DNA of 64,000 nt from an uncultured Thermococci archaeon. GTDB taxonomy: Archaea > Methanobacteriota_B > Thermococci > Methanofastidiosales > Methanofastidiosaceae. The notes below the pieces were generated by a model. That model made no database searches, was not told the origin of the DNA, and saw only the letters and a program-made list of their open reading frames with translations. The stretch spans positions 128,934 to 192,933 of the forward strand of contig CAZCMP010000002.1 in the NCBI GenBank assembly GCA_964500005.1, in the 5' to 3' direction. The stretch's first letter is position 1; each line of letters starts with the position of its first letter. The position numbers were made by a program, and so were the translations under genes. Shown here piece after piece: positions 5,832 to 61,941 of the stretch.

Positions 5832-7586
5832 ATGTTTGAAATAAAGGCAAAAGATGGGCTAGGAAGGATAGGAGTACTATCAATAGGTAAAAAGAAAGTT
5901 GAAACCCCAACACTGATGCCTGTTATAAATCCTAACAAGATAGTAATTGCCCCAAAGGATATGCCAAATTATGGGGTAGAGATGATTATTACAAATTCAT
6001 ATATTATTTATAGAACTCAAAAACTCAAAGATACCGCTCTTGAAAAAGGCGTCCATAAAATGCTTAACTTTGATGGAGTCATTGAAACTGATTCCGGCTC
6101 TTTTCAGATGGCAGCTTATGGAGATATAGAAATAGAAAATAAGGAAATAATTCAATTCCAGAAGGATATTGGGGTTGATATTGGAACTTTTCTTGATATA
6201 CCAACACATCCAGATGAATCCCATAAGAAAGCATTTTCAGATCTAGGAATAACTCTAGAGAGGGCAAGAGAAGCAATTGGATTTGATCTAGATTTAAATG
6301 GTACGATACAAGGCGGGACTCATTTAGATTTAAGAAAAAAATCGGCAGAAGAAATGAGTAACTTATCTTTTACTGTAAATCCAATTGGCGGTGTTGTTCC
6401 ATTAATGATGGAGTATAGGTTTAGTGAATTGGTAGACATCATTCTTACTGTAAAAGGAAGTCTTTCTCCTTCAAGACCTGTACATCTTTTTGGCGCAGGC
6501 CATCCAATGTTGTTGTCTTTGTCTGTTCTCTTAGGTTGTGATCTTTTTGATTCTGCTGCTTATGTTCTATATGCACAGGATTCAAGGTATCTCACATCTT
6601 ATGGTACAAAAAAATTAAATGAAATGAAATATTTGCCATGTAACTGTCCAGTTTGCAGAAAGTATACTGCACAAGAATTAATTAATCAGAATGATCAAAA
6701 AAGAGTTGAGCTTCTTTCTAGTCATAACTTATATGCTACTTTTGAAGAGATTAAAATAATCAAAGAAGCTATTCATGAAGGGACATTATTTGAATTAGTT
6801 GAAAGTCGAATTAGGGGCCATCCACGTTTACTGCTTGCATACAGGAGAATTAAGGATTATTACGATATTCTAGAAGAATATGATCCTTTTACAAAAAGAT
6901 CGTCAATATTTTATACTGGCGAAGAGTCTAACTTAAGACCAATAGTAAAAAGAACTAAGGAACGGATAAAAGATATTAAATCTAAGAAATATGACGAACA
7001 TCTGTTCTTTGGTAAATTCCCAAAAGAACTTGAGTTTACATACCCTTTTGGTCAATGTGAAATGGAAGAGGAAAGAAGGGACAAAGGAGATCCCGAGCTA
7101 AAAGATGAAGATATAGTAAAAGTAATTGCAAACTACCAATTTGGACCTAATGTAGGTGAAAAACTGTTTCACGATGTAGTTGTTAAAAGATCCAAAACTG
7201 GAATGATACGCTATGTCTTTGATAAGAAAGGAAATATGCTTGCAACTTTAAGGGCTAGAGACGGCCTATTTACTCCAAATGTTGAAGGATTAAAAAGATT
7301 AAAGGAAATAATACCATTCCCTAAGTACAGAATAGTTGTTAATGACGAAGCTGCACCTTTCATAAAAGATGGAGCAAATGTATTCTCAAAGTTTGTTTTA
7401 ACAATTGACACTAATCTTAGGGCCTATGAAGAAATTCTTATTGTAGATTCAAATAATAATCTTTTAGGTACCGGAACTTTGATGCTTTCACCAAAAGAAG
7501 TTAAGGCATTCGAAAGAGGTATGGCCGTTAGGACAAGATGGGGGATAGAAAAAAATACTACCCAAGAATCCCAGATAGAAGATTAG
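5832..7586 (+). CDS. tgtA: archaeosine tRNA-guanine transglycosylase (ArcTGT) with C-terminal PUA domain
   Basis: N-terminus MFEIKAKDGLGRIGVLSIGKKKVETPTLMPVINP, zinc site CNCPVCRKY, 584 aa with C-terminal extension. This is an archaeal hallmark gene. Confidence 0.9.
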   Translation: MFEIKAKDGLGRIGVLSIGKKKVETPTLMPVINPNKIVIAPKDMPNYGVEMIITNSYIIYRTQKLKDTALEKGVHKMLNFDGVIETDSGSFQMAAYGDIEIENKEIIQFQKDIGVDIGTFLDIPTHPDESHKKAFSDLGITLERAREAIGFDLDLNGTIQGGTHLDLRKKSAEEMSNLSFTVNPIGGVVPLMMEYRFSELVDIILTVKGSLSPSRPVHLFGAGHPMLLSLSVLLGCDLFDSAAYVLYAQDSRYLTSYGTKKLNEMKYLPCNCPVCRKYTAQELINQNDQKRVELLSSHNLYATFEEIKIIKEAIHEGTLFELVESRIRGHPRLLLAYRRIKDYYDILEEYDPFTKRSSIFYTGEESNLRPIVKRTKERIKDIKSKKYDEHLFFGKFPKELEFTYPFGQCEMEEERRDKGDPELKDEDIVKVIANYQFGPNVGEKLFHDVVVKRSKTGMIRYVFDKKGNMLATLRARDGLFTPNVEGLKRLKEIIPFPKYRIVVNDEAAPFIKDGANVFSKFVLTIDTNLRAYEEILIVDSNNNLLGTGTLMLSPKEVKAFERGMAVRTRWGIEKNTTQESQIED

Positions 7587-8400
7587 ATCCGATAATGAAC
7601 CTAAATGAAAGGTAACCTATTGCTGTCAAGATAATACTATGTTTAATTCCTGAAAACAGAGAGTTTGTTGTCATCTTTCCTATCATAAGCCCGGCTAATG
7701 CACCGTGAATGATTAACATGTTTTGGAATGTCGTCTTAAATGCTTCTTTACTGATACTTTCTTTAGCTGTTGGAAGAGTAATATCTGAAAATACTTCTAC
7801 AAATTGAGTCTGTAGTAGGAAAACTACTGAAACAAAAACAAGATAAGAAATGTAAATAATCCCTGTATACTGACCTAACTTTGAGGCTTGTTCCTTTGCA
7901 AGCCCCCTCATCATTCTTGCACTTTCTGCTGCAGATTCTAAAATCTTTATTATATTTCCTCCTGCGTGGTGGGCTATTACAATAAGGGATACTGTTCCTT
8001 GAACATTTTCACTCTTCACCTTGTCTGCAAATGATGTTAGTACCTCATCAAATGGGACCCCCCAAGAGATCTTAGATGCCATGACCTTAATTTCATCTGT
8101 AAGTCTCCCATAGTCATCTTCTTGCGCCATCTTTATGGCTTGTGGAAGGGTCATCCCTGCAGCCTGAGAGTCTGCAAGCGCTCTTAAGAATTCGGGGAAT
8201 TGATCCTCAATTTCGGTGATCCAAGCTTGTTCTCTCATCTTAATAAAAAGATAAGGTCCTACTGCTACGGCAATACCTGCTATAGCTAGCTCACTTAAAT
8301 TTAAAACGAAAAAGCCAATTAGGCCCAATATTATCCCAGAGGCCACACTTCCAATCATGACGTACATGTTGTAATTTCTTTTTCTCAAATTTTCACCCAC
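7558..8400 (-). CDS. type II/IV secretion system F-domain membrane platform protein (TadC/FlaJ-half-like)
   Basis: Polytopic membrane protein with a cytoplasmic T2SSF-like domain (…LPQAIKMAQEDDYGRLTDEIKVMASKISWGVPFDEVL…). Last gene of the operon; overlaps tgtA convergently by 29 nt. Confidence 0.7.
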   Translation of the reverse strand: MGENLRKRNYNMYVMIGSVASGIILGLIGFFVLNLSELAIAGIAVAVGPYLFIKMREQAWITEIEDQFPEFLRALADSQAAGMTLPQAIKMAQEDDYGRLTDEIKVMASKISWGVPFDEVLTSFADKVKSENVQGTVSLIVIAHHAGGNIIKILESAAESARMMRGLAKEQASKLGQYTGIIYISYLVFVSVVFLLQTQFVEVFSDITLPTAKESISKEAFKTTFQNMLIIHGALAGLMIGKMTTNSLFSGIKHSIILTAIGYLSFRFIIGSNLLSGILG

Positions 8401-8401
8401 A

Positions 8402-9376
8402 TTACCTCTTTGGAGCTACCTGGTCAACTGCTATTATGAACAAAGCGTAACCAATTGGTAATCCAAAATAAACTACAAGATTATTAATTAAATTGACTTG
8501 GGACATTGGAGTCCCCATTATACCCATAATTGTGGTCATGATGATAATAAATACTGGACCCACAACTAAAGCTGTGACATAGGCTTCTGCTATTAAACCA
8601 ATAGTTTCTATTGCTGCTTCAGTTTTCATTCTTTCTGCTTCCATTAATCTGTTTCCTTCAAGATACAAATACTCTTTGAGATTTCCACCAGTCCTTATTG
8701 TAGCTATCATCTTCCACATAAGCTCACTAAATATGGGGGATGGAGATCTGTTTGCTGCCCTCTGAAGCGCTTGAACTAAATCAAGTCCAAAATTTTCAAT
8801 GTCATTTAAAATCTTCTCTGATTCTCTTGAAACTTCTCCATATCTCCTAAATTCTACAAGAGACCAAAAAATAACTGCCGGGGGAACACCGGTTCCAGCT
8901 ATAGTTGCCATTGTGTTTACTGCACTTGTAAGAGACAGATTAATTTTTCTAGACCTTTCCCCAGATTTAAAAGAAGGATAAGCCCAAAATATAATGAAAC
9001 TCATAACTGCAAATAAGATTGAAAAGATTAGAATCAAAACTATATTAAAAGTAGTATCAACAGGCCTACCTGGAGATACTATTGAATTTATCAATTCCCC
9101 TAAGAAAAGAGGGACAATCAATATTAGAACTAAAAAAGAAACAATACCTACAATTACTGAAGTAAGAATCATAGAACTGACATATGCACCCAAGTTTAGA
9201 GGGATGTCCCCCTTCCTCAAAGGGGCATGGAGCTCCTCAAAGAATTTAAGCCTATTATCTACTAGAAAACCTAATCTTTTGTGGGCCATCTTCCCATAAT
9301 TCATGAAGAAGCCCTTTTTTTCATATTTTTCTATTTCTTGGATTTTAAGGTCTGTTTCTTTTTTTCTACCTAACAT
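8402..9376 (-). CDS. type II/IV secretion system F-domain membrane platform protein (TadB/FlaJ-half-like)
   Basis: Second T2SSF-like membrane protein immediately downstream of the ATPase. The pair mimics the bacterial TadB/TadC split rather than a single fused archaeal FlaJ. Confidence 0.7.
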   Translation of the reverse strand: MLGRKKETDLKIQEIEKYEKKGFFMNYGKMAHKRLGFLVDNRLKFFEELHAPLRKGDIPLNLGAYVSSMILTSVIVGIVSFLVLILIVPLFLGELINSIVSPGRPVDTTFNIVLILIFSILFAVMSFIIFWAYPSFKSGERSRKINLSLTSAVNTMATIAGTGVPPAVIFWSLVEFRRYGEVSRESEKILNDIENFGLDLVQALQRAANRSPSPIFSELMWKMIATIRTGGNLKEYLYLEGNRLMEAERMKTEAAIETIGLIAEAYVTALVVGPVFIIIMTTIMGIMGTPMSQVNLINNLVVYFGLPIGYALFIIAVDQVAPKR

Positions 9377-9380
9377 AAGT

Positions 9381-11240
9381 TCAACTTTGTATCTTTTTCA
9401 ATATAGCCTCAGGATCCCTAGTATATTCTTTAATTACATTTCCCACGTCTCTATAATTAACTATGTTGTTTTCAGCCATCCAGCCTAATACAAGAGATCT
9501 CCTGTTTATTTCTTCCCATACCTCTTCTTGAGTCATGCCCCTGGATACGGATATTCTCTTCACTATGCTACTCTCTTTTGTATCATAAACAAATTCATCG
9601 GGCCCAGGATCCCATCTGAAAACTGTTTGATAAATAGGCTCTCCTTTTTTTAGATCCATACCAGTTATTTCAATTACTTCTTTTACTCTCCTGATTGCTT
9701 TTCCTTCTATTTTTGCATGGGTTAATAAGAAACAAATGTTTAATGATTGAAGAAGTGCTGGAGAGAGGTTAATGGGCCTAGTTGTAAGTCTATTAATTAG
9801 AGCCTCCATTGAATCGGCATGTATTGTTCCCATACCTGGGTGACCTGTTGCCATACCAGTAAACATGACGTTTGCTTCGGCCCCTCTAATTTCACCAACT
9901 ACTAGATAGTCTGGCCTCTGTCTTAATGCAGCTCTTAATAGGTCAAACATGTCAACTTCCCCCTGTTTCTTCCCCTCAGTATTAGTAGCTGATCCAAATC
10001 CAGATCTAGTAACTGCTGGCAACCAATGCTCTTGCGGAAGATTCAATTCTTGGGTATCTTCAATTGTTACTATCTTTGCTTCAGGAGGTAAAAATATGGC
10101 AAGTGCATTAAGCATAGAAGTCTTACCAGTGGCAGTTCCACCAAAAACAAGCGTTGAGGCGGTGTAGGAGTGCTCAAGTGCCAACCACATATATGCAAAT
10201 ATTCTTGGTGGACAAGACTTGTAGTTTATCAATTGTATTGGGGTCATTGGATCAGTTTTAAATCTTCTGATGGTAAAAGTGGGACCATGTTGTGTTACTT
10301 CTCTGCCAAATGTAGCTTGGACTCTAGAGTTATTTGGTAATCTTCCATCAAGTAGAGGTTCTGCTACTGAAATGTGTCTGTTACATCTCTGCGCCATCTT
10401 AATTATTATACTGTTAGCATCATCATCCGAGCTAAAGAGTATATTTGTAGGAAGGGAACCATATTTTGCATGATAGACATAAATTGGTATTCCAGTTCCA
10501 TCACAACTTATATCTTCTATTAGGGCATCGTGGAAAAAGGGTTCTATTGGTCCAAGCCCAATATAATTTCTTCTTAAATAATACATTATCTTTTCAAAAG
10601 CGTCTGGCTCTAAGCGTAAGTTTAATTCATCGATAATTTCTAAAGTTTTGTTTTCTAGGTAATCAACTAATTCACTCTTTTCTTGGAGGCTTTTAAAATC
10701 TACTTCAAGTTCTTCTTGAATAATTCCTTGGATTGTACTGAGTCTAGTTTTTTCTAGTTCTGAAAGTTCAGGTTCTTCGATTAGATATGTTAATTTAGAT
10801 AATTTTTCGTCCCATTTTATTCTTGCATAAGCATATGGATCTATTAATGGGTATCTTTCATTAAATCCTGTATAATCTTGTGTCCTCCATTTTTGAGGGA
10901 TAATAAGTATATCTTGATCCTTCATTATTACTCTCTTTTCTTCTTCTAATGAAGGAAGCCTCCCCCCTTGTATTGTAACAGGGCCAGATATAACAAAAGT
11001 TGTAGTTCCAGCTGCAGGTGCAACTTCTTTTGGAACTTGATCTATAGAATCAATCTTTATTTTTTCAGAAGTACCCTCTTTTTGTTTTTTTGATTCCCCT
11101 AAGGATACGCCTTCTTTCTTTAAAAAGTCAACTTCACTCTTTTTTTTGAGCTTCTCATAATTTGATTTAGGTTCATTATCTAGTAAAACATCTGATTCTT
11201 TTAATTTTTTTATTAACTTGAGAGCCCCTCTTTTTTTCAT
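9381..11240 (-). CDS. type II/IV secretion (FlaI/TadA/PilB/VirB11-family) assembly ATPase with a ~190-aa Lys/Glu-rich N-terminal extension
   Basis: Walker A GGTATGKTSMLNAL, Walker B DYLVVGEIRGAEA, His box MGTIHADS. Confidence 0.85.
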   Translation of the reverse strand: MKKRGALKLIKKLKESDVLLDNEPKSNYEKLKKKSEVDFLKKEGVSLGESKKQKEGTSEKIKIDSIDQVPKEVAPAAGTTTFVISGPVTIQGGRLPSLEEEKRVIMKDQDILIIPQKWRTQDYTGFNERYPLIDPYAYARIKWDEKLSKLTYLIEEPELSELEKTRLSTIQGIIQEELEVDFKSLQEKSELVDYLENKTLEIIDELNLRLEPDAFEKIMYYLRRNYIGLGPIEPFFHDALIEDISCDGTGIPIYVYHAKYGSLPTNILFSSDDDANSIIIKMAQRCNRHISVAEPLLDGRLPNNSRVQATFGREVTQHGPTFTIRRFKTDPMTPIQLINYKSCPPRIFAYMWLALEHSYTASTLVFGGTATGKTSMLNALAIFLPPEAKIVTIEDTQELNLPQEHWLPAVTRSGFGSATNTEGKKQGEVDMFDLLRAALRQRPDYLVVGEIRGAEANVMFTGMATGHPGMGTIHADSMEALINRLTTRPINLSPALLQSLNICFLLTHAKIEGKAIRRVKEVIEITGMDLKKGEPIYQTVFRWDPGPDEFVYDTKESSIVKRISVSRGMTQEEVWEEINRRSLVLGWMAENNIVNYRDVGNVIKEYTRDPEAILKKIQS

Positions 11241-11313
11241 ATTCTATTCCTCTAATATTTTTTTTTCTATTAATGTATATAAATAATTATCGGTATTGTA
11301 ACATTATATTTAA

Positions 11314-13746
11314 TTATTGATATACTTTAAAGTTATAATATTGGCTAGTTTCTTTTTTTATGCCGTCTATTTCAAATGAGTAAGTGAATAAGACCAAGTA
11401 ATCGCCAGGTCTCCTTACATAATACTGATTTGTTGAAATAATGGTTGTAAACTCCTCTATGTTTACTCTTCCTGATCTTTCCAATATCGGTGCATATTGG
11501 TAATATGGAACTCTTCTTAATAATACTCTATTTACTTCGTCAGGAGAACTTAATTGAGCATTTCCATCATCATGGAATGGTATGATAGATACTATTTCAA
11601 ATCCTACACCGCCAGAGTAGAATATTTGCCCAGGATACAATTTATTACTCCCATCAATAGTGATATACTCTTCTCCTAGGTCAATTATTCCATTTTTATT
11701 TCCATCATACGTTATTCTAATATATTTGCTAAAAGAATTAACTTCAAACTCGCATAAAATGTTTCCAAGCCAACACTTCTGGCCATTAGCAGGATAATAA
11801 ACATCATATTCATAGAAAAATTGATTATCGATTAATGGAAAACTTACAATTATACCTTCTGGAGTAATAAAAGTAGAATTTGTTTCATAAGTATTAGTTG
11901 GTGTTTTAGAGTCTATAATCAATTTCTGGTTAATAGTATCAAAATTGTATTCCCAAGTATTTATTACTTCATATTCATTGTTCCAACCATAAAATAATCT
12001 AGTATACCCTACAGGGAATCTTTTTTTCTCTGATTCCATATCAAAATACCTGAAGATAACATGCCATTTTTCATCATATCCTAGATAGTTTGTACCATCA
12101 AAAATAACAAGATAATTGCCCAGTATTACGGGATCACCAATCTTGAGAACGATATCATTTCCTAATGGCGGGTCTATTGTAACTAGTGTAGCATTGACAT
12201 ATCCTAATGAATTCTTTTTAGGATATACCCTATATAGGCTACCACCAACTCTAAATTCTCCGTAATCGAATTTATATGCTTCAGTTTGAATTAAGTTCTC
12301 ATCTTTATCTATTCTAACGTCAAGCATTCCATTATTTCTTCTTAGAAAACTTACAGTAGGGGGTGTTATGTCACTTACTATGTATTCCTCTCCGCCTAAT
12401 TGAAATTTGAAACCTTCTTCTATTGGATATGCAGAATTACAAATTAGATTTCCCAAAATATCTCTTTCACACCTTTGAATATCAATCAAATTTTCTTCAT
12501 TTCCCTCATATATGCCTATAATTTTATCATTTGTACTGTCAATTTTAACTTTGTATCTTGAATTCTCTGAGTAAAATACTCCATCTTCTCCGATTAATAC
12601 AACTTTTATAATTTCCCATACGTTTAGTTTGCTTCCCAAGCCTTTTGAATTATTAAAATCTTTATCAGAAATGGGCCCCTCTAAGTCATTATGAATCATT
12701 GTAGTAAATACTACTTTATCCCCATTATAAATTAAGGAGTCTTTTAATCCATTTTGTTTTTGGACGTTTAAACTTAATAGTCCATAACGCAAACCAGGAT
12801 CTTCAATTGGATCAAACCATTGTCTTCTTTTTTCAGTTTCTTGCAGGGAGATTTGTATATTCATTATTACATATCTAACGTAATCATCTTTCTGTCCATT
12901 AATTAGATAATTTATCTCATTAATCTTAATTAAATAGGTTCCCAATAGAAATACATCATTTTCATAAAAGATAGATTTTCCATCCAATGTAACTAACTTA
13001 TCTCCAGAATCTCTTATTTGAACGTAGTTCATACTACCGTCATTTCCTATAAAAAAAGAATAGTTGTCGATAAAAGATGCCCTGTTTTCTATGCTATTCA
13101 TTCCCCCATAAGCGATTCTGCTTTCTCCAATAGTATATGCCCTCTCTCTATAAATTATTCTTGAGCCAGAAGAATAATTGGCTTCTCTAAACAAGACTTC
13201 ATTTTGTTCGTTTTTTATGACATAAGGGTTTGAAGAGCTAGGCTCTCCACCGTTCAAAGGCTCAACAATAAAATTACCTATGTCTGATTGCATTTGGTAT
13301 ATTTTTGGATTATCCTGCGTTTTCGTTATTCCAATCAATATTTTTCTATTAAAATTTCCTACTTCAAAAATAGATGGGCCCGTAAATAGTATATTATCAT
13401 CAAAATCAATATTACTTGACTTAACTACTTCATTTCCAACATCAAGTTGGGATAAGTAATAATTAAGTTCTTTTTCTTCTATTTCATAATGGGCAGAATA
13501 AATACTAGAAAATGCTCTATGAGGAGTAGTTAAATCTCCTGTAGCATAAATATTTTCTAAAGAATTTCTAGAAGTTTGTCTTATTGAGCTTTCAATATAA
13601 CTTGCAATGTAAGGTATATCTGAGAATGGGACGTCCTCTAAAGTTTGAGATATTTGCCTCGATGACATCAAGGAATACTGTATCACAAAAAGTGAGAACA
13701 CTACTAAAACTGCTGCAAAGATGAAAAATTGGGATTTATTGTTCAT
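11314..13746 (-). CDS. secreted/surface protein (810 aa) with putative class III (prepilin-like) signal peptide
   Basis: N-terminus MNNKS|QFFIFAAVLVVFSLFVIQ fits the pattern K-S followed by Q then a ~20-aa hydrophobic helix. It is Asn/Tyr/Gly-rich and its start overlaps the upstream gene by 4 nt (ATGA). Confidence 0.5.
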   Translation of the reverse strand: MNNKSQFFIFAAVLVVFSLFVIQYSLMSSRQISQTLEDVPFSDIPYIASYIESSIRQTSRNSLENIYATGDLTTPHRAFSSIYSAHYEIEEKELNYYLSQLDVGNEVVKSSNIDFDDNILFTGPSIFEVGNFNRKILIGITKTQDNPKIYQMQSDIGNFIVEPLNGGEPSSSNPYVIKNEQNEVLFREANYSSGSRIIYRERAYTIGESRIAYGGMNSIENRASFIDNYSFFIGNDGSMNYVQIRDSGDKLVTLDGKSIFYENDVFLLGTYLIKINEINYLINGQKDDYVRYVIMNIQISLQETEKRRQWFDPIEDPGLRYGLLSLNVQKQNGLKDSLIYNGDKVVFTTMIHNDLEGPISDKDFNNSKGLGSKLNVWEIIKVVLIGEDGVFYSENSRYKVKIDSTNDKIIGIYEGNEENLIDIQRCERDILGNLICNSAYPIEEGFKFQLGGEEYIVSDITPPTVSFLRRNNGMLDVRIDKDENLIQTEAYKFDYGEFRVGGSLYRVYPKKNSLGYVNATLVTIDPPLGNDIVLKIGDPVILGNYLVIFDGTNYLGYDEKWHVIFRYFDMESEKKRFPVGYTRLFYGWNNEYEVINTWEYNFDTINQKLIIDSKTPTNTYETNSTFITPEGIIVSFPLIDNQFFYEYDVYYPANGQKCWLGNILCEFEVNSFSKYIRITYDGNKNGIIDLGEEYITIDGSNKLYPGQIFYSGGVGFEIVSIIPFHDDGNAQLSSPDEVNRVLLRRVPYYQYAPILERSGRVNIEEFTTIISTNQYYVRRPGDYLVLFTYSFEIDGIKKETSQYYNFKVYQ

Positions 13747-15802: not shown

Positions 15803-15804
15803 AA

Positions 15805-18800: not shown

Positions 18801-20259
18801 CTATCAGTTCAACTACTCGGATAGAATCAAAATCAATAGTGGTAGTTTCAAGATTAAGGAATCCTTGATTGGCTAATTTATTAATTTCATCTGTTGGGTC
18901 AATTATTACTTTAATTGGCTCATTTATGTGGGTAATACTGCCTGAATTTACTGCTACAATTTTTCTAAAATGCCAATCTTCTCCACTGCCTAGACTAGTT
19001 GGATCCCACCAAGGGCAGACCGTTGTATTACAGTCTATTAAAGCTTTAACGTCTATTGGGATTGTAGTAGCAATTATTTTACCTGCACCCCAATTTGATA
19101 TAATTAATGAAGGATTACTATTATCTTTATTCCCAAATGGTGTTTCTCGAATTAGAATATCGGCGTTTGGACCATCAAAATATGGTTCTAAAATGGTCGC
19201 TTCAGCAGAATAATAACTACCTGCGATCTCATAAGGTAAAAGATTTGATGTTATATTATGTTGTTTTGATACGCCAATTGTATCATAGTTTCCTTTATCA
19301 AAAATTACACTTATTGGTAAAAAATCATATTTTGTTTTTTGATCATTATATTGGGATAAAAGAATTATTGAGCCTCCATCTTTAACATAGTCGCTTAAAA
19401 CTTGTTTATTTTTGAAATCACTTAATGAGTCTAACATAGTGGAATTAGACGGTATAAGGATATTTGTACAATATCCTATATATCTATCATCAATTCCATA
19501 TGAATCTGAATTTAGTATATAGTAATTAAAAGGATATACGGAATATGTGTTATTTCTACTATCAAAGTATTGGCTCCAATCTTTTTTAGGGTATTCAAGT
19601 AAAAAACAACTCTTTGCTAGAGATTCTGGAGGATGGCCTGCATCACCTATTACTGCTGATTTAAAAGTTGGGGTTAAGTAGACTATATAATCTTGAGTAT
19701 TTTCTGCTGGCTGTTTATCCATCTTGAAGAATTGAAAATCTCCAATAATATTCTTATCTCTAAGTGTTGAATTAGTAGGGTTAGAGTATATGTTGTATGC
19801 TCCATCAATATAAAATCTACTATTGGCGGCGACATTATGTTTTTCGGCGCCTTCTGGGCTTAAAATTAAATCGCCATTTTGATTTTTAGGGTATACCCTA
19901 ATATAATTCCAATCAGTATCATGCTCTACTTTGAATAATTCATTTTCACCAACAAAATAAGTATTGTCGTTCAAATTAATTTGTTTTAAAGGAATTACTA
20001 TATTTGTTTCAACTAGTGTCCTTTCAATCCATGCTATCTCGTTGTAAGCAACGACATTTTCTATATAAGAGGCAATATTCTCAAAACTTTTTTTGTCTAT
20101 TTCGTCAGAAAAGCTTTTAGAAAAAGTTTGGGAAGTCCTCCAAAAGAATACCATTGCTAGAAGAAGTATTGCTATGAGCATTATGGCCATTACTACGTGC
20201 ATCTGAGATTTTTTGTTTTTAATAAAATTATTATATCGCATTTCATGATTATTTTCCAT
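15805..20259 (-). CDS. giant (1484 aa) surface protein with class III-like signal peptide and FG-GAP/VCBS beta-propeller repeats
   Basis: N-terminus ...NKKS|QMHVVMAIMLIAILLLAMVFFW. Repeated Dx[DN]xDGxx[DE] calcium-binding-like motifs (DVDGNGVIDIVVG, GDINHDNSLEVIIGG, ADINKDGYEDIIL, DDIDNDGKSEIVFM). Confidence 0.6.
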   Translation of the reverse strand: MENNHEMRYNNFIKNKKSQMHVVMAIMLIAILLLAMVFFWRTSQTFSKSFSDEIDKKSFENIASYIENVVAYNEIAWIERTLVETNIVIPLKQINLNDNTYFVGENELFKVEHDTDWNYIRVYPKNQNGDLILSPEGAEKHNVAANSRFYIDGAYNIYSNPTNSTLRDKNIIGDFQFFKMDKQPAENTQDYIVYLTPTFKSAVIGDAGHPPESLAKSCFLLEYPKKDWSQYFDSRNNTYSVYPFNYYILNSDSYGIDDRYIGYCTNILIPSNSTMLDSLSDFKNKQVLSDYVKDGGSIILLSQYNDQKTKYDFLPISVIFDKGNYDTIGVSKQHNITSNLLPYEIAGSYYSAEATILEPYFDGPNADILIRETPFGNKDNSNPSLIISNWGAGKIIATTIPIDVKALIDCNTTVCPWWDPTSLGSGEDWHFRKIVAVNSGSITHINEPIKVIIDPTDEINKLANQGFLNLETTTIDFDSIRVVELIGGDCNNLVEIPSQSYPFRPNLEEAGYRAVPKEFHEHTIFFELNDPKDIRLEMEIPTGAQHKDEPSPGINTDFNITINDIPVKELLVHLPPASNPTNMPGYWDPYDGGPNDGPDGYSVVLPQKYFYKGQNKIRLKMDVPDDGTLTWYQNVIFRLYERRSPAPDLLFWQEYPPFHVYFVMGATEETQGITYSQTYPGQTRYYYIYFDIEENGKKAIIPSYRTRDDSHSQKWSIQLDNQYAFKETKFDNSYIINRDSYPIFMNVSSPSSADVDGNGVIDIVVGLRDGNVTVIRGDSSLPSIIWKKSLFTLNNPTRDGDIYYNYAGISGSPAIGDINHDNSLEVIIGGANIRSVFNYNNKIMTVNTLPSAVSILDGMNGDLLGSLPIDGALMSSPILADINKDGYEDIILVDTRIENLSYVTTTKVFTSNPTITNTLYVYSGINNSLLLKQSTSQTYDPRFFGRVVSNVVEFMIPTSSPAVGHFNGNGNMGIKGDGELDIVWGAIDGNVRAYRGTRDVGGNYSLIPLWTRSLGFPNRITTSQNPLSYICSSPAIAQTNYKNDYDDIIISNVHTGTDNNNRIFTVMLDGSNGSIIYRNQFTNANGARINSRSNETIGGSPVIHSPNGQSHRGPQVFVPVGSNIKVAHLDGTHIVQDEAINGGWQGIDRINHSYATPVIVEINNYTTYSRDNDSFFSDILLGNENGILYCHSYRDTDQASQNAIVNNWQYTTNPQSPIRSAVVVDDIDNDGKSEIVFMTFDGRLISLDAASNYTRWSFNRHDLHGTANTLTNLNPSTYKMSEVEAIDFKGDTDPYNDQFVFLSDFRLGSPSYQNIFSSYFTDSWIKIDTNKNNDINDERALYTKELIQLDIDTYEGRRVEHTFALESIYGDILNNKYLLTFYDRGIIKLFNNIMAYTSAPTKNIQIEEGIWISLDIPNKIGSRDYIIEGLGNKLRIYDPNNPQIEYLRETRGINIYGTISSTSKNKYVVITSYGAYLTPNPSVG

Positions 20260-20268
20260 GTGAACATC

Positions 20269-23200
20269 TCAATCCAATAGTAGTTCATGACCACATGCCC
20301 AGATTATGATATTGCTCTCAAGATTTCTAGCCAAATCCCCATATACTTCATCTTGGTGGAAATTCTGTCCGTTTGGATTAGTATTATTCTTATATCTGTC
20401 CAAATCCATTGTGGTAACTACAACACTTCCCTCAAGATTATTAAAAGAATTTCTTCTTTCCTTAATTAGAAGAACTGGGCCTCCATTTGCTTGTGGTGCT
20501 AAAACTGCACCCCCCACAAGTTTTCTTGCAAGGCCGGGAGGAAGTGTTTCCGTGGGTGGGTCTCCCCTCTCCTGGTATATTTTTTGGAAAGTTTTTAAGT
20601 TAACCATAACGTTGTTTCCAGCCCAACCTGTGTCTATTAAATCAAAATATCCATGTGCACACATAGTAAATTCGTTTGGTAGTTTATTCATTATTGGATT
20701 TTCTAGGGACAATTTTTCTAAATTAAACATACGCCCAGATAAATCTAGATCCATGTTAACTGTCATCCAATCAGGAGGTAAGAAGGGAGGTCCCCCTCCA
20801 CGCCCTGGAGGCCAAGTTTGACCCGTTGATGCATCTGGATCAAATTTGAATACAGATGGAATCTTACCATGATCCCATTCGATCTTATTTCCATCTTCAT
20901 CGATGTAAAGAATTCCAGACCATTGCTCTGAGACTACAGTGTTTCCTTGTTTATATTTTGTCCACCCATAATAAGCTATAGGAACATTTCTATGGACATC
21001 ATTTGTCTGGCCGTAAATTTTATAGTTCAGCCCAACTGGTTCATTTGATACTCTGCCAATTGAGAGATCACTTCCATAAAATGTCGGTAGCCAAGAATAT
21101 TTTCCGTAATAATAGTTGTTTGCACCTAATGTATATTTATATTTTGAAGTTATTAAATAAGTATCTGCCCAAGAGTCCCAATCCCGATCATTTACTACGG
21201 TTACTATTACCGGATTATTAAGATCACCAGCATAGTCTGGAACTGTAAATGTAATTCTCTTATCACCTAGAGGATTATTGACTTTAAATCCATATGTAAA
21301 TAGATTTCCGTCTGTACACCCACCTGCAGAATATGTTACTGCAATGTCTGCTGGGCCTCCGGGAAGAGAATCTGCAGTTCTTACAAGCTTTGCAACGCCG
21401 CCAACTCCGTCAGGTACATATCTAATTTTTCCCAATTTTCCTATTGTAATATTTATTTCTTTGATTGCATCATAAGAATTTAGATTGTTTGAACACTGAA
21501 TTGCATCAAAGCTAAGGTAAACTAGTTCTCCTTCAGAAGCCCTATTGCTAGATAAAGATAAGTTTTGTATTACTGGTGACTGTGAAGTAGTGATATAGTA
21601 CCATGTCCTAGAAGATTTATTCCCAATTTTATCCGACGCTTCAACTGAAACATTAATCTTATTCGTATTCTCCCATGGCCATGATGGTTTGTAAATTACT
21701 TCATATCCATTCGCTACTTGTGTTATATAGAGGCTATCCGTTACTTCCATATTTATAACACTTGAATTAGAGTAAGATTGACCTAAGATAAACATCCTGA
21801 TTGAATTTCTATCCACCCCGGCGTTTACATCTGTTATAGTAACTCTTATAGGGGCGGTAGGTAGTGCTGTTGCGTTATTAGCAGGTATTTCCCCTGTAAA
21901 AGTAGGGCCATAATTCTTAACGCGTATTATTTTATCATAAACTGGTGAAGACCCTACATTTCCTGCAAGATCGGTCATTGTTATCTGAACATCGTAAAGT
22001 CCATTTGGAACATTTGGTATATCTAATACACCAATTATTGTATGTGTACCGCCAGCACTAACATTGTTCATATTAGGTGTATTGATGACAGTTGTAGTTT
22101 GTCCCACTAATGTTGAACTATCATCATACAGCTTAATTGTGTAGGAAGCGGGATATAGTTCAGTATATGTAAAAGTTATGTACGCTTTATCTCCGGTCTT
22201 TGCATTTTGTGGAGTGCCAGGTATAGGGTCACTAATAGTAATGGTATTTGGAGGCACTGTATCGTATACTACCCATTTAGTTGTTATAGCATCATATGGA
22301 GAAGTATCACCATCAGCTTTAATCCTTATTATGTTAACTCCAGCGCTTAAATTTACTCCAAAATTAATATTGGGGCCTGAATTAGAACCTATTGGAGAAG
22401 CATTAATGTCAAGTGTAACATTTCCATTTGTTGAAGTTGTTCCAGATATATTAATCGGAGAGCTATTTGTAAAAGTCAAAAATGCCTGAGGTTGAGTTAT
22501 AGTCACAGTTGGTCCTTGAGAGTTAATATTGAAACTCCAAGGATATACTAAGAAATTACCCAAATCATCCTCAACATATACAGATGCTACATGAGTTCCT
22601 TCAAATTGATTTATTCCTGGGGCGTATGAAACAGAACTACTTCCAGAACCTCCTGTAACCCCAGTAAATACTCCATCTAAATAAAGTCTAGACCATTGTA
22701 TCCCCGCCCCAACATCATTATAATCGATACTAATCTGGGGGGGATTATCACTTATTGTTCCTTGAGGAGAAGGATTTGAAGTTAGAGGTGAAGATGTATC
22801 TTTTAATATTGTTATGGTCTGAGTTAATGAATTTTGAGCTCTGTCATATGTAAGTATGGAATAATCAACATTTCCTTCAGAAAGCGGTAAATAATGATAA
22901 TATGTATGTATGTCGCCCCATAGTGGATTACCTTGATGCTGTAAATTTAGAGTTCCATAAGTCGATCTTTGAATCCCACTCAATCCATCTTGAACTGAAG
23001 AATTTATTCGTGTATATGGGCTAGTTGTTACCAAGAATAAGCTAGAATTTATAGGAGACATGGGAGGGGCTAGAGAATCTTTTCTAATTTCTATCTCAAA
23101 CTGTAAAGGATCGTAAGGACTAACAGGATTGAGAAAAGTTGAGCGTTCTAAATAATTTGCAGAATCATCAGTTGCTTTTACGGAAACTTGGTAAATCCCA

Positions 23201-25173
23201 TCAATAAATGTATCGCCTATGGTCCACTGCCCGGTGTATGTGCCATCGCTAGCCAATCTATCTTTGCCCAAACCATTATCATAAATTATTGTTCCTCCTT
23301 GAATAACTCCGCTCTGTAAAACGTTAATGCCTACGTAGTTAACATTGCTTGCATCTTTTACATATGCATAAAATACTGCTTTCCCTCCTGAATCATTAAT
23401 CCAAATTACGGGATGAGGAAATTCAGAAGGGTTCTGGCCGTCTTGCCCATCTGGAACAATGTTAACGTTTTGTATTCTTGGTGGATCAACGTCATTAAAT
23501 AAAGAGGGATAAGGTAAGTACAATGGATTGTTTAAATCATCAGGATCAATATTATCAAATTCAGAGAACTGCCCAAAAACTATAAGGCTACGGGCATAAT
23601 CAACACCTTTGAATTTGAATCTCCCTAATGAAACAAAATTAGAAAGTGAAGTCCTATGTATATCCTTATTTAATTTTTCCAAAACTTTATTATCATTTGT
23701 AGCCCCGGAAGCAACTATTACCAAAGAAAAATCTTCATAATTCAGTACATTTGGATTTCCTCCAATTCCGGCAAGATCTTTAAACATTAGGTAATCTCCA
23801 TAATCTGTAGGGGATTTAGTAAAAGATGGATCTAAAAGCCACTCTAATGGGTATATTCTAAGGCCTTGCGGAGGATCGCTTCCGGGATAATTAAACCAAT
23901 TGCCACCACCTGTTCCTATTCCTTCGCCGCTAGAAGAATCTGTTCCGCCGTAAACAACAAAATAATTGGATTGGTATGTGCCTCCAACTGTATTATCAAA
24001 TGCATCCATTACATCAAACAAAAGATTATCATAATCACTATCATTGACATTAATTCCCTCTCCAAGGGTATCGTCTAACAAAACAATTGCAATAGGCACA
24101 TTCTCAATAATATCTTGTTTTGTTAATTTATACAAAGGTATATTAAAAAATCCGGGGCACTCACAAATTATAGGAGAGGTGTCACAAACACCGCCTTCAT
24201 TAAAGAATGCTTCTGCTGAGTTCCAAAAATCATTGTCGCATTTTCCTGTACTACTATTCATGTTTACTTTCCATGTGCCAAGATTTTTATTAAAATCCTT
24301 ATGGTATATATCAGTTTTAGCATAAATAGTTGATGAGCCATCATTTTCTTTCATTGCGTAAGAAGGTAAGGAAACCTGGACATATAATTCCAGATCTAAA
24401 ACACCATCTGATTTTGGGATTTTTACCGCATACCTTCCTTGGGAGTTAGTTTTTGTTACTGCAACAATTTCAGATTTTTTGTTAATGAAGGTAATCTCTG
24501 CCCCTGCAAGAGGTGCGTCATCAATTGCATCGAATATTTTATCATTTTGTGGGGAGTTGTCCATTGAAGGCTGGTTCTCATCTTTAAGCCCATCATTATT
24601 GCCTCCTTCAGTATTATCATAAACGTACCCCTGTAATGTCCAACTATCTCCTGTAATTGGAATATCGGGTGATAACCCCAAAAGGACGTCATTTGACCCC
24701 TTGTTTTGGATATAAATTCTATATTTGCCCGCACTCAAAAGCTGAAATCCAGATAAAATTTCTATTTCCCCGCCATACTGAAGCTTAATATTAACTGCAC
24801 TTCCACTAAAATAGGTATCCATACCCATCTGTTGGGATACAGATTGTACATTTGGTGCGTCCATTAAGAACCAAATTATGTCTTGATTCTGATCCGCACT
24901 AATAGTACCCTTATCAAAATTAATATCAATGTAACGTTGTGCGCCTTCCCCTTCAAACCTAACTTCTCTAATCTTTTTATCAAGTTCTAAAAAAGCACTC
25001 TGCATTGAATTAATTCTTGAAACGTCTCTTGACCTTTCAATCTGGGGTGCTGCAAATTGGTATGCAGCAAAAACAGCCGCAACTGTAATTGCGAGAATTA
25101 GCATTACTGTAATTACTTCTACTTGGGCCTTTTTTGATACTTGCCCTCTTTTTCTTATTATCCTAAAACTCAT
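20269..25173 (-). CDS. giant (1634 aa) surface protein with class III-like signal peptide, CarboxypepD_reg-like and Ig-like beta-sandwich regions
   Basis: N-terminus MSFRIIRKRG|QVSKKA|QVEVITVMLILAITVAAVFAAY. Segment LAGAEITFINKKSEIVAVTKTNSQGRYAVKIP resembles a carboxypeptidase-regulatory/transthyretin-like domain. Long Thr/Ser/Asn/Gly-rich repeats. Confidence 0.55.
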   Translation of the reverse strand: MSFRIIRKRGQVSKKAQVEVITVMLILAITVAAVFAAYQFAAPQIERSRDVSRINSMQSAFLELDKKIREVRFEGEGAQRYIDINFDKGTISADQNQDIIWFLMDAPNVQSVSQQMGMDTYFSGSAVNIKLQYGGEIEILSGFQLLSAGKYRIYIQNKGSNDVLLGLSPDIPITGDSWTLQGYVYDNTEGGNNDGLKDENQPSMDNSPQNDKIFDAIDDAPLAGAEITFINKKSEIVAVTKTNSQGRYAVKIPKSDGVLDLELYVQVSLPSYAMKENDGSSTIYAKTDIYHKDFNKNLGTWKVNMNSSTGKCDNDFWNSAEAFFNEGGVCDTSPIICECPGFFNIPLYKLTKQDIIENVPIAIVLLDDTLGEGINVNDSDYDNLLFDVMDAFDNTVGGTYQSNYFVVYGGTDSSSGEGIGTGGGNWFNYPGSDPPQGLRIYPLEWLLDPSFTKSPTDYGDYLMFKDLAGIGGNPNVLNYEDFSLVIVASGATNDNKVLEKLNKDIHRTSLSNFVSLGRFKFKGVDYARSLIVFGQFSEFDNIDPDDLNNPLYLPYPSLFNDVDPPRIQNVNIVPDGQDGQNPSEFPHPVIWINDSGGKAVFYAYVKDASNVNYVGINVLQSGVIQGGTIIYDNGLGKDRLASDGTYTGQWTIGDTFIDGIYQVSVKATDDSANYLERSTFLNPVSPYDPLQFEIEIRKDSLAPPMSPINSSLFLVTTSPYTRINSSVQDGLSGIQRSTYGTLNLQHQGNPLWGDIHTYYHYLPLSEGNVDYSILTYDRAQNSLTQTITILKDTSSPLTSNPSPQGTISDNPPQISIDYNDVGAGIQWSRLYLDGVFTGVTGGSGSSSVSYAPGINQFEGTHVASVYVEDDLGNFLVYPWSFNINSQGPTVTITQPQAFLTFTNSSPINISGTTSTNGNVTLDINASPIGSNSGPNINFGVNLSAGVNIIRIKADGDTSPYDAITTKWVVYDTVPPNTITISDPIPGTPQNAKTGDKAYITFTYTELYPASYTIKLYDDSSTLVGQTTTVINTPNMNNVSAGGTHTIIGVLDIPNVPNGLYDVQITMTDLAGNVGSSPVYDKIIRVKNYGPTFTGEIPANNATALPTAPIRVTITDVNAGVDRNSIRMFILGQSYSNSSVINMEVTDSLYITQVANGYEVIYKPSWPWENTNKINVSVEASDKIGNKSSRTWYYITTSQSPVIQNLSLSSNRASEGELVYLSFDAIQCSNNLNSYDAIKEINITIGKLGKIRYVPDGVGGVAKLVRTADSLPGGPADIAVTYSAGGCTDGNLFTYGFKVNNPLGDKRITFTVPDYAGDLNNPVIVTVVNDRDWDSWADTYLITSKYKYTLGANNYYYGKYSWLPTFYGSDLSIGRVSNEPVGLNYKIYGQTNDVHRNVPIAYYGWTKYKQGNTVVSEQWSGILYIDEDGNKIEWDHGKIPSVFKFDPDASTGQTWPPGRGGGPPFLPPDWMTVNMDLDLSGRMFNLEKLSLENPIMNKLPNEFTMCAHGYFDLIDTGWAGNNVMVNLKTFQKIYQERGDPPTETLPPGLARKLVGGAVLAPQANGGPVLLIKERRNSFNNLEGSVVVTTMDLDRYKNNTNPNGQNFHQDEVYGDLARNLESNIIIWACGHELLLD

Positions 25174-25251
25174 AGGATTACCTTGAGTATATAATAAAAA
25201 ATAATAAAGATTATTTAATGTTTATCCTATGTTTTGCGAATACCTCAAAGA

Positions 25252-26472
25252 TTAGATCACTATCTTCTTTCTCGAAAACTCTGTTCCCATAACTATGGCA
25301 AGGGCTGAAGAGAATATAAGTATCAATGAAAGCGCTAGGTCGAGGAATACCCCAGGATCAGGTAAAGAAATCCCTAAAGGTCCTTTGAACACAAGGAATA
25401 GTATGCCTGAAATAATCCACAATGCACCGATAACATAGAGCACAGCGTTATCGCTTCCCTTAGAACCAGATTGTGTTCTTGCCTTCATTGCAAAGAGTAT
25501 TGGCGGTATACCTGTAATCATCATTACTATGTAGAAAACAACTCCCATAAATCCAGTTCTCAGAACGTTAAATATTGAAGATATTGGATTGTTTGCAGTA
25601 AATATCCCCATACCATTGAACAAAAAGAATATCGCAAATATGAGCCATATGAATCCTAAGAGATAAAGTGTTATTGGTGCAAAGATAGAACCAGAAGCTT
25701 TTGTTTTTGTTTCGCCTTTGAGATCTTTCATAAGCTCTTTGGTATCGATTCCAAGCTCTTCTGCCTCTCGTAAAATCTCATCCAATGACGGCTCCTCGTT
25801 AATTAATTCAGTCCCCATCCCAGAATCTATTCTCTTTTTTGAGAAAATTGTTTCAATCCTTTCTTCTGGAAGAACTTGATTTACTTTTTTTAGGAATTCA
25901 CTTTCAGAAAAATCTTCAAGTGCATCGTCTATTACCTTTTCATGTTTTTCCGTAATTGAAGGTTCTGCTTTCTCTTCAGAAATTTGTTTTTTAATGTCTT
26001 CAGCTATTTTTCTTTCGAATTTCTCTTCAAGTTCGTACTGTGACTTTCTTGGTAATTCTTGTTTCGTTGCAAAACTCTGCCCCATTGTCTTAAAAGTTTT
26101 CTCCATCTCCTGAAGTTTTTCTGTGTTCATTTTGATTGATTCAGCTACACGTTCCATAGTTGTGGCAACGTTTGATAGAGATTCCATCAATTTGTCCTCT
26201 TCGTTTTCTGCGTCTTCAGAACTCATGCTTGATTCTAATAGGTTAATCAGTTTCTCTAGTCTTCCAACAAGGGGATCTTCATAAGCCCCGCCCTCTTCGA
26301 CTGCGGCAGCGCTTAATATTTCTTTTATCTCATCGAGCTTCGTGACGATTTCCTTTGATTCTAGTGGAACACCGCTGTATCCCATTCGAGGCATGATCTG
26401 CATGAAAGTATCAAGCTGTTGCTTTAGCTTTACATACTCCATCTTGAGGTCATCATAATCATTGCCAACCAT
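25252..26472 (-). CDS. membrane protein: ~235-aa acidic coiled-coil cytoplasmic region followed by ~5 TM helices
   Basis: Glu/Lys-rich heptad-like N-terminal region and hydrophobic C-terminal third. It is the first gene upstream of the pilus-like operon (78-nt gap). Confidence 0.45.
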   Translation of the reverse strand: MVGNDYDDLKMEYVKLKQQLDTFMQIMPRMGYSGVPLESKEIVTKLDEIKEILSAAAVEEGGAYEDPLVGRLEKLINLLESSMSSEDAENEEDKLMESLSNVATTMERVAESIKMNTEKLQEMEKTFKTMGQSFATKQELPRKSQYELEEKFERKIAEDIKKQISEEKAEPSITEKHEKVIDDALEDFSESEFLKKVNQVLPEERIETIFSKKRIDSGMGTELINEEPSLDEILREAEELGIDTKELMKDLKGETKTKASGSIFAPITLYLLGFIWLIFAIFFLFNGMGIFTANNPISSIFNVLRTGFMGVVFYIVMMITGIPPILFAMKARTQSGSKGSDNAVLYVIGALWIISGILFLVFKGPLGISLPDPGVFLDLALSLILIFSSALAIVMGTEFSRKKIVI

Positions 26473-26628
26473 TCTATCATCTCATTAATGCTAATGTATG
26501 TTATAACTTATAAATTTAACTATTTAAAGTTTTTCTATAAAAAAATGTAAAATTATAAATATTGCTTACCGATTTTCAGTATTAAGTAGTAGTTACCTTT
26601 TTATTGGATTTCTAGTTAATAATTTTGA

Positions 26629-46075: not shown

Positions 46076-46106
46076 AATTTTATTTTATATAAAATTAAAA
46101 AATATT

Positions 46107-47756: not shown

Positions 47757-47764
47757 AAAAACAC

Positions 47765-52581: not shown

Positions 52582-52586
52582 AAAAT

Positions 52587-54572: not shown

Positions 54573-54617
54573 TAAAAGTCATCTCTCTAATTTTGTAATA
54601 TTAGTATAATATTTCTA

Positions 54618-58302: not shown

Positions 58303-58311
58303 GGTGATTAT

Positions 58312-59667: not shown

Positions 59668-59701
59668 AAAAAAATTTTATTTTTTAATTATTTTTAATAA
59701 A

Positions 59702-61129: not shown

Positions 61130-61196
61130 AATAGCTAACTGTTTTTATTTATTTATATAATTTCCTTATTATTTACTGAATTTATGCGCAAAAGTA

Positions 61197-61916: not shown

Positions 61917-61941
61917 AACTTGGACCTTTTTTAGAGAGTTT

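Follow-up and report, generated by a model that had tools for sequence, protein, structure and literature searches.

A type IV pilus-type locus with five pilin-like proteins, two of them of unusual size, in Candidatus Methanofastidiosum

What does an archaeon do with a pilus-type assembly machine whose companion proteins reach 1484 and 1634 amino acids (aa)? The question is raised by an operon on contig CAZCMP010000002.1 (assembly GCA_964500005.1) of an uncultured member of the Methanofastidiosaceae. We analysed a stretch of 64,000 nucleotides (nt) of this contig, which we refer to as the window, and all coordinates given without a locus number refer to the whole of it. We conclude that the operon probably codes for a type IV pilus-type assembly machine of the archaeal kind and for five pilin-like proteins that form a set of its own. 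The classification as a type IV pilus-type locus is supported by the predicted gene products, namely an ATPase, a split platform and five proteins with class III-type N-termini.

A preliminary description of this DNA had reported a nine-gene operon on the minus strand with gaps of -28 to +78 nt. We found all of these open reading frames (ORFs) at the reported positions in the ORF listing of the window, where they span 7558-26472 on that single strand. The successive intergenic gaps are 78, 9, 2, -28, -4, 73, 4 and 1 nt. The features are listed below in the order of transcription, with the supporting evidence in brackets.

26473-26628, no strand: divergent intergenic region 5' of the first gene, presumed from its position to be the promoter region
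25252-26472, minus: accessory membrane protein, 406 aa, first gene of the operon (ORF, hydropathy)
20269-25173, minus: giant pilin-like protein 1, 1634 aa (ORF, Pfam, orthologue alignments)
24559-25173, minus: N-terminal module of giant 1, aa 1-205 (DUF7289 score, AlphaFold2)
15805-20259, minus: giant pilin-like protein 2, 1484 aa (FG-GAP matches, alignments)
14876-15802, minus: pilin-like protein, 308 aa (conserved N-terminal site, orthologues)
13743-14903, minus: pilin-like protein, 386 aa, probably 380 aa (conserved N-terminal site, orthologues)
11314-13746, minus: pilin-like protein, 810 aa, no domain recognised by Pfam (conserved N-terminal site)
9381-11240, minus: secretion/assembly ATPase of the FlaI/PilB/GspE family, 619 aa (T2SSE domain)
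8402-9376, minus: TadB-like platform protein, N-terminal half, 324 aa (one T2SSF domain)
7558-8400, minus: TadC-like platform protein, C-terminal half, 280 aa, or 266 aa from a later start (one T2SSF domain)

The start of the 386-aa ORF is probably the ATG at 14885, where its orthologues begin too. This start gives a protein of 380 aa and therefore an overlap of 10 nt with the upstream gene, not 28. A scan for bacterial-type promoters and terminators, which is not applicable to an archaeon, returned the same counts as shuffled sequence.

The reported FlaI/TadA-like ATPase and the TadB-like and TadC-like genes were confirmed by Pfam: the product of 9381-11240 contains a T2SSE domain (E = 1e-31) and the products of 8402-9376 and 7558-8400 contain one T2SSF domain each. 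The 324-aa protein aligned to positions 14-248 of the 555-position FlaJ model of NCBIfam and the 280-aa protein to positions 275-540. Because the two proteins match opposite halves of FlaJ, the platform is genuinely split into two genes. We then compared the ATPase to sequences in the Protein Data Bank (PDB) and obtained 368 bits for AfGspE (2OAP), 262 bits for Sulfolobus FlaI and 134 bits for CpaF. The best NCBIfam model was FlaI with 394 bits (cut-off 550); the TadA model reached 149 bits (cut-off 373) and the Pfam family PilB3_C 21.3 bits (cut-off 27). The ATPase resembles AfGspE more than FlaI or CpaF, and we tentatively assign it to Clade 2, where AfGspE has been placed (arCOG01817; Makarova, Koonin and Albers 2016, PMC4858521, supplementary figure S4), by this similarity ranking. 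Its relatives fall into tiers: at least 79% identity in Methanofastidiosa, 62-69% in a sister lineage and ~45-52% in thousands of further sequences, many of which carry the Pfam domains PilB3_N and PilB3_C.

Two other characteristics of the ATPase genes were observed. The first 125 residues of the protein (window 10866-11240) form a Lys/Glu-rich N-terminal extension outside the region aligned to AfGspE and FlaI, and this extension of ~125 residues is absent from the 511-aa ATPases of Heimdallarchaeota. Some related ATPase genes encode proteins of ~950-1070 aa (L044 9857-13060 and the proteins P0271 and P0289). The ATPase of some lineages appears to contain an intein, because P0271 and P0289 match Pfam PF14528 and PF14890, which we take to be LAGLIDADG and intein-splicing domains; for L044 this reading comes from the length of the gene alone.

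Each of the five proteins encoded between the accessory membrane protein and the ATPase has exactly one hydrophobic segment, located at the N-terminus, and no C-terminal anchor according to hydropathy. We scanned every ORF of the window with a crude rule, which asks for [KR][GAS] among the first 35 residues and, after it, a 16-mer of strong hydrophobicity that carries no more than one charge. Among real genes only the five pilin-like proteins matched; the other matches were internal starts or antisense ORFs. Five consecutive matches compared to none in about fifty other genes are not due to chance. Using a slash for the predicted cleavage, the sites are KKA/QVEV (between aa 16 and 17) in the 1634-aa protein, KKS/QMHVV in the 1484-aa protein, RKG/QDIID in the 308-aa protein, NKG/VMRTFE in the 386-aa protein and NKS/QFFIF in the 810-aa protein. 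For the respective orthologues we obtained the consensus sites [KR]KA/QVEVIT, K[KT]S/QM[HN]VV, [KR]G/QDIIDN, NK[GS]/VMRTFEA and NK[SGA]/QFFIF. The motifs were kept in orthologues at 25-65% identity, and in the sister lineage all five proteins retain [KR][GSA]/[QVF] N-termini at an overall identity of 25-33%. Archaeal prepilin N-termini had been proposed for all five proteins beforehand and the pattern is indeed present and conserved in every one of them. The site KRG/Q originally given for the 1634-aa protein was dropped because it is absent in other species (L002 has KKRPIARKA/Q); the conserved site lies six residues downstream. A BLAST comparison among the five proteins gave no significant match, so they are not recent paralogues. 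Gln occupies position +1 in four of the five, an acidic residue occurs at +5 in the 308-aa family of both lineages and Glu at +6 is conserved in the 386-aa family. Gln at +1 and an acidic residue at +5 have been reported for the substrates of the Methanococcus prepilin peptidase EppA (PMC4187195).

In orthologues of the 308-aa protein from several Methanofastidiosum genomes (L004 14330-14389, also L006, L011 and L012) the N-terminus KIKILFKFKKSRKG/QDIID is encoded in frame 5' of the called start, before the first ATG, GTG or TTG and right after a GGAGG motif. Translation probably begins at a non-canonical ATA or ATT in these cases and the gene callers truncate the protein.

These observations bear on the question of whether the locus could be an archaellum or an Epd/Tad-type pilus, i.e. 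a member of Clade 1 of Makarova, a reading to which we give almost no weight. It would explain why FlaI is the best NCBIfam model of the ATPase, and Methanofastidiosum is related to lineages with Clade 1 systems. The Epd pili of Methanococcus maripaludis (PMC4858521, PMC4187195) share with our locus an ATPase with two half-size platform proteins, Gln at +1, at least five minor pilin-like proteins and two large adhesin-like proteins, and their major pilin is small and encoded elsewhere. However, the presence of two platform genes is not exclusive to Clade 1, the FlaI score stays under its cut-off and the score for AfGspE is far above that for CpaF. An archaellum was rejected because the platform is split and both archaellins and FlaF/G/H genes are absent; no archaellin family passed its cut-off (TIGR02537: 17.2 bits, cut-off 20) and the FlaJ models remained far below theirs. 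An Epd/Tad-type system was rejected because the ATPase is far from the CpaF/TadA type, DUF2341 is absent from the large proteins and the locus contains no EppA gene.

The two giants differ in their domain content. The 1634-aa protein begins with a DUF7289 module. A weak CarboxypepD_reg-like stretch (aa 213-254) comes next, then Ig-like repeats at aa ~630-960 and finally a C-terminal part that is conserved; the matches to CarboxypepD_reg, Big_13 and Glucodextran_B are all below the Pfam cut-offs. Scanned alone, aa 1-205 reached 31.6 bits for DUF7289 (gathering score 27). In a profile search of 1.84 billion representative proteins we detected 338 relatives of this N-terminal module (E <= 0.001). 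Most of them are 140-290 aa long with typical archaeal pilin-type N-termini and a minority measure 750-1210 aa; in each of the 150 relatives listed the match starts at or before residue ~70. DUF7289 was also matched by 44 of 124 relatives. From an alignment of 124 sequences AlphaFold2 modelled aa 1-205 with a mean predicted local distance difference test score (pLDDT) of 85.9 and a predicted template modelling score of 0.72. The model consists of a basic leader, an alpha-helix of 60 residues (aa 15-74) and, after it, a beta-sheet (aa 79-167). A model of aa 1-640 from only 16 orthologues was rejected (mean pLDDT 38), apart from its secondary structure, which agrees with that of the aa 1-205 model. 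Prediction of the N-terminal structures and comparison with pilin folds had been suggested earlier: for the 1634-aa protein the helix and sheet were modelled confidently, but no solved pilin matched the modelled module significantly. PDB sequence and profile searches with the 1634-aa family gave no match either.

In the 1484-aa protein two conserved parts, of ~700 aa at the N-terminus and ~140 aa at the C-terminus, flank an FG-GAP/PQQ-like beta-propeller (aa ~740-1290). Pfam reported FG-GAP_3 with 39 bits (cut-off 26.9) and FG-GAP with 26 bits (cut-off 22.1). The family profile matched BamB and 'cell surface protein' propellers in the PDB, in the propeller repeats only. The beta-propeller of the giants in the preliminary description is thus upheld by FG-GAP; VCBS was not found and the beta-sandwich modules (CarboxypepD_reg/Ig-like) stayed below threshold. 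Of the two giants, only the 1634-aa protein has a demonstrated pilin-type module. The remaining families gave fainter signals, each DUF-matching family pointing to a different DUF. These were DUF7266 at the N-terminus of one sister orthologue of the 1484-aa protein, DUF7287 in three of the four 308-aa-type orthologues (E between 4e-4 and 1.5e-3) and DUF7288 in all eight orthologues of the 386-aa protein, each match below its cut-off.

We also studied how conservation is distributed along the giants. Conservation is highest in the first 100 residues of the giants (85% in the 1634-aa protein) and lowest in the propeller and Ig-like regions (~36-50%). N-glycosylation sequons are two to four times denser in the giants than in cytoplasmic proteins of the window; the 1634-aa protein contains 11 per 1000 residues compared to 4.3 in the cytoplasmic proteins. 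As far as sequence patterns can indicate, this fits an assembly end that is conserved and exposed parts that evolve fast.

To which organisms is the system restricted? Homologues of each giant formed only 16 clusters, all of full length, and the named ones belong to Candidatus Methanofastidiosum. The nine-gene locus and its flanking genes are syntenic in other Methanofastidiosum genomes, and a scan of species-representative genomes revealed 17 loci of the Methanofastidiosum type. Across this group the ATPases are 80-88% identical and the giants 47-55%. By cluster look-up and contig retrieval we identified a sister lineage in unclassified euryarchaeal metagenome-assembled genomes, the named members of which carry the NCBI labels 'Methanomicrobia archaeon' (GCA_023133315.1) and 'Euryarchaeota archaeon' (GCA_034659995.1); its ATPases show the 62-69% identity given above. 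In the sister loci whose contig extends past the platform genes (L048, L049/L050, L051 and L052) we found the same five proteins in the same order. The block of ATPase, TadB-like and TadC-like genes lies upstream of the five-gene cassette in the sister lineage and downstream of it in Methanofastidiosum. The sizes of the five types are as follows.

308-aa type: ~308-331 aa in Methanofastidiosum, 293-340 aa in the sister lineage
386-aa type: ~378-398 aa in Methanofastidiosum, 355-376 aa in the sister lineage
810-aa type: ~796-841 aa in Methanofastidiosum, 780-919 aa in the sister lineage
1634-aa type: 1561-1634 aa in Methanofastidiosum, 974-1488 aa in the sister lineage
1484-aa type: 1442-1500 aa in Methanofastidiosum, 493-1158 aa in the sister lineage

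In both lineages the three smaller proteins are stable in size and the two giants are variable. Across the lineages both giants keep their N-terminal part and their last 140-250 residues, and the middle is replaced, with Big_1 and Invasin_D3 domains instead of the propeller in the sister orthologues. The 1484-aa family aligned to the sister proteins of L048, L049 and L051 at the ends only.

The same data speak to a further explanation, that the N-termini are ordinary uncleaved signal anchors and the five products membrane-anchored surface or S-layer-like proteins that happen to lie beside pilus genes. Cleavage is only predicted, no solved pilin is significantly like the model and Ser at -1 is atypical, all of which this explanation would accommodate. 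On the other hand the motif of [KR] and a small residue with Q or V at +1 is kept where the rest of the protein has diverged to ~30% identity, the N-terminal module comes from a family of mostly small proteins in which it is likewise N-terminal, and the five genes are strictly linked to the ATPase and platform genes in Methanofastidiosum and the sister lineage despite the differing block order. We regard uncleaved anchors as very improbable.

The accessory genes are specific to each lineage. The 406-aa protein of the first gene combines an acidic N-terminal part of ~255 aa (62 Asp and Glu, 36 Lys and Arg) with four C-terminal hydrophobic segments detected by hydropathy. It matched no Pfam or NCBIfam family. 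In other Methanofastidiosum genomes it occupies the same position at 73-77% identity, and no counterpart was found in the sister-lineage loci examined. In the sister loci two conserved small genes are located directly 5' of the ATPase gene (L052 8769-9947, L053 8756-9949 and L051 5123-6217). They encode a protein of ~176-207 aa with an N-terminal hydrophobic segment and a zinc-ribbon (DZR) protein of ~177 aa. The Methanofastidiosum operon is without counterparts of these two genes and has the 406-aa membrane protein instead.

A more distant form of the locus occurs in Heimdallarchaeota (e.g. L039, and L022 in CP084166), for which we found no characterisation. It resembles the Methanofastidiosum locus in its related ATPase (45% identity), the split TadB-like and TadC-like genes and a set of five proteins. 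It differs in that all five are small (285, 154, 381, 155 and 228 aa) and are accompanied by small coiled-coil and HSP20-domain proteins. Four of the five have [KR][GA] followed by Q or V at the N-terminus. The 285-aa protein matches DUF7289 and weakly Pilin_N, and in the profile comparison it paired with the 1634-aa family (P 95%). The 381-aa protein paired with the 308-aa family (P 95%, E = 1.7e-8), and the pairing of the 155-aa protein with the 386-aa family was weak (P 58%). For the 1484-aa family the hint from DUF7266 and the profile comparison disagree on the Heimdallarchaeota partner. Given these small counterparts, the Methanofastidiosum proteins look like inflated members of an ordinary pilin set.

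Some other details of the Heimdallarchaeota loci were noticeable. Directly after the ATPase gene comes a gene for an HSP20-domain protein whose N-terminus is rich in Lys and Asp (L039 11571-12233 and equivalents), and a gene for a 139-aa coiled-coil-looking protein with a faint FlaC_arch match follows the TadC-like gene (L039 14571-14990 and equivalents). Both are conserved across about 20-25 Heimdallarchaeota loci. In L026 (14993-16816), which is of the Heimdallarchaeota type, the TadB-like and TadC-like halves form a single ORF of 607 aa, so that the platform is either split or fused among closely related genomes.

How would such a system work? A prepilin peptidase encoded elsewhere would cut the basic leaders after a small residue, between [KR] plus Gly, Ala or Ser on one side and Gln or Val on the other. 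As in the known families, the hexameric ATPase would dock on the platform formed by the half-size TadB-like and TadC-like proteins, and the two together would pull the hydrophobic N-terminal helices out of the membrane and pack them into a helical core. Most likely the five proteins would act as a minor-pilin set that starts the fibre and remains at its tip, by analogy to GspH-K or to FimU-PilVWXE plus PilY1 of bacteria. Three members of constant size (~300, 370 and 800 aa) would be joined by two giants that may be regarded as modular pilins, in which conserved N- and C-terminal parts flank a variable middle of adhesin-type domains (propeller or Ig-like repeats). A small major pilin whose gene lies elsewhere would supply the shaft, as it does in euryarchaeal systems that depend on PilA. 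The likely role is adhesion to surfaces or partner cells. Adhesin-type features are the FG-GAP propeller in our protein, Big_1 and Invasin_D3 in the sister orthologues, the fastest divergence in the exposed parts and the enrichment of sequons.

We hold the most specific part of this proposal, that the giants are true pilins of ~1,500-1,600 residues whose N-terminal helices are assembled into the tip of a type IV pilus, only tentatively and consider it possible rather than probable. One option of the preliminary description was enormous subunits, which we read as giants that are the repeating units of a thick fibre. Such a fibre is very unlikely in our view. The pilin-type N-terminal module would allow it and the operon offers no other candidate subunit, but every helical position would have to provide room for globular parts of 1400-1600 aa. 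Moreover, the operon encodes five different single-copy proteins in fixed order and of very unequal sizes, which resembles a minor-pilin set and not a shaft subunit. The counterparts in the related Heimdallarchaeota loci are small and varied, and the modular pilins studied so far are minor, of low abundance and thought likely to be located at the tip (PMC8179133).

Several observations weigh against a pilus with a tip set of this kind. The cleavage of the five leaders is a prediction from the sequence pattern, and the 1484-aa and 810-aa proteins have Ser at -1, not the classical Gly or Ala. No prepilin peptidase was detected in the window (Pfam on membrane proteins) or in any fetched locus (motif scan); a candidate with seven transmembrane segments at 61197-61916 turned out to be a carotenoid-synthesis family protein (Pfam). 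Likewise no gene for a small major pilin was found in the window or in any fetched locus. The matches to DUF7287, DUF7288 and DUF7266 are the sub-threshold ones described above, and the pairing with the small Heimdallarchaeota proteins is firm for two of the five and weak or ambiguous for the rest. The tip location of the giants and their adhesive function are drawn by analogy.

The missing major pilin leads to the main rival of the pilus reading, a short pseudopilus or bindosome-like display device. The five processed proteins would form a short stalk rooted in the membrane that holds giant adhesin or binding domains outside the envelope, with no long fibre. The same data fit both readings, and we judge the stalk unlikely but worth serious consideration. 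It agrees with the lack of a major pilin gene in operon and window and with the size of the five proteins, which are far larger than typical shaft subunits; class III signal peptides also occur on non-filament surface proteins in Sulfolobus (PMC4187195; PMC4858521). However, the absence of the major pilin gene says little, because known Clade 2 major pilins often lie apart from the ATPase locus. A Sulfolobus bindosome (Bas) in the strict sense was rejected: BasE reached 194 bits (cut-off 1000) and BasF 26 bits (cut-off 1300) in NCBIfam, and Pfam detected no solute-binding domains. Of the bindosome-like alternative that had been raised initially, membership in the Bas family therefore fails and only the mode of working survives, as the rival just described.

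We next ask how far the pilus-type locus departs from what has been described. The initial judgement that the apparatus is undescribed and that no comparable archaeal locus exists did not hold. Archaeal type IV pilus loci with an ATPase, two TadC genes, at least five minor pilins and large adhesin-like or FlaFind-positive surface proteins have been reported and a 959-aa member of a pilin arCOG has been tabulated for Archaeoglobus fulgidus (PMC4858521). The concept of 'modular pilins' is established for bacteria (Raynaud et al. 2021, PMC8179133), and the sister lineage provides further relatives. Because of these loci, the 959-aa protein and the modular pilins, the kind of machine is already known, and our locus is an extreme variant of a known archaeal surface machine.

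Among the closest known systems are the Clade 2 loci (Haloferax volcanii PilB4-type; Archaeoglobus, PMC4858521). Two TadC-like genes are common in Clade 2 as well, and there too about five or six pilin-family genes that differ in size follow one another. The ATPase of our locus resembles AfGspE, and its pilin-like proteins match, mostly weakly, DUF7266, DUF7287, DUF7288 and DUF7289, of which DUF7289 alone passes the Pfam cut-off. The Methanofastidiosum locus differs in its members of 1484 and 1634 aa, in having no PilA-type major pilin nearby and in the 406-aa protein of the first gene, which was seen only in Methanofastidiosum loci.

The bacterial modular pilins (Streptococcus sanguinis PilB and PilC; CofB, GspK; PMC8179133) are similar in that functional modules are grafted after a pilin-type N-terminal module, which in our locus is demonstrated for the 1634-aa protein. 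Grafts of the CarboxypepD_reg type (PF13620) are among their common architectures, and they are thought likely to be exposed at the tip and to act in adhesion (PMC8179133). In contrast to these proteins, which show no sequence relationship to ours, the giants are archaeal and roughly twice as long as the 860-residue protein singled out as the most extreme multi-domain case in the modular-pilin survey (PMC8179133). A conserved C-terminal part also follows the variable middle, so the giants are not a simple module plus graft. The sizes of 1484 and 1634 aa are larger than those of any pilin-module protein in the sources compared.

The combination of PilY1/PilC and FimU-PilVWXE in type IVa pili offers a functional analogy in assembly priming and tip adhesion, as there too the gene for a large beta-propeller protein lies next to a few minor-pilin genes. 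PilY1 itself is no pilin and lacks a class III N-terminus. The propeller in our locus is of the FG-GAP/PQQ type. A PilY1/PilC tip adhesin was rejected as an identity for the giants, since Pfam found no PilY1/PilC domain and the proteins have pilin-type N-termini.

The rest of the window is ordinary chromosome, with genes for pyruvate:ferredoxin oxidoreductase, tRNA-guanine transglycosylase, a NiFe hydrogenase with HdrA-like genes, and RuBisCO. The G+C content is 0.41-0.45 in 46000-54600 and 58000-62000 compared to 0.30-0.38 elsewhere in the window. The NiFe hydrogenase (large and small subunit), an FAD-binding protein and an HdrA-like protein are encoded in the first of these blocks, and the RuBisCO large-subunit gene (59702-61129) lies in the second. 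Near the pilus operon (29190-30173, minus strand) lies a gene for a 327-aa protein with an N-terminal hydrophobic segment, CWB2 repeats (cell-wall-binding) and a C-terminal DUF7343/TrmB-like helix-turn-helix region, an odd pairing of an envelope-binding domain with a DNA-binding-type domain. Its position is kept in other Methanofastidiosum genomes.

New in this locus are the extreme size of two members and their conserved ends with a swappable middle, as well as a fixed five-gene cassette that is common to two euryarchaeal lineages and has a small form in Heimdallarchaeota. The locus also provides a working interpretation of DUF7266, DUF7287, DUF7288 and DUF7289, for which we found no paper mentioning the families, as members of one pilin set. 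The small cassette proteins in Heimdallarchaeota, the medium ones in the sister lineage and the giants in Methanofastidiosum form a natural size series, with which the cargo capacity of a pilin module could be tested. If the giants are true tip pilins, they would be the largest pilin-module proteins found on record and their conserved ends would be a scaffold for swapped adhesin cassettes (propeller, Ig-like or invasin-like). The five-gene cassette would then be an archaeal counterpart of the complex of minor pilins and PilY1 at the tip, present in miniature in Heimdallarchaeota.

The uncultured Methanofastidiosum occurs widely in digesters and sediments and needs other organisms to supply it with hydrogen and methylated thiols. 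In the literature searched we found nothing on pili or other surface appendages of this group. A conserved adhesion machine that is fixed in the chromosome, and whose exposed parts are very large and evolve fast, is a concrete candidate for holding partners or particles. If the proposal is true, it could determine to which partners this methanogen, which is obligately hydrogen-dependent, attaches in syntrophic consortia.

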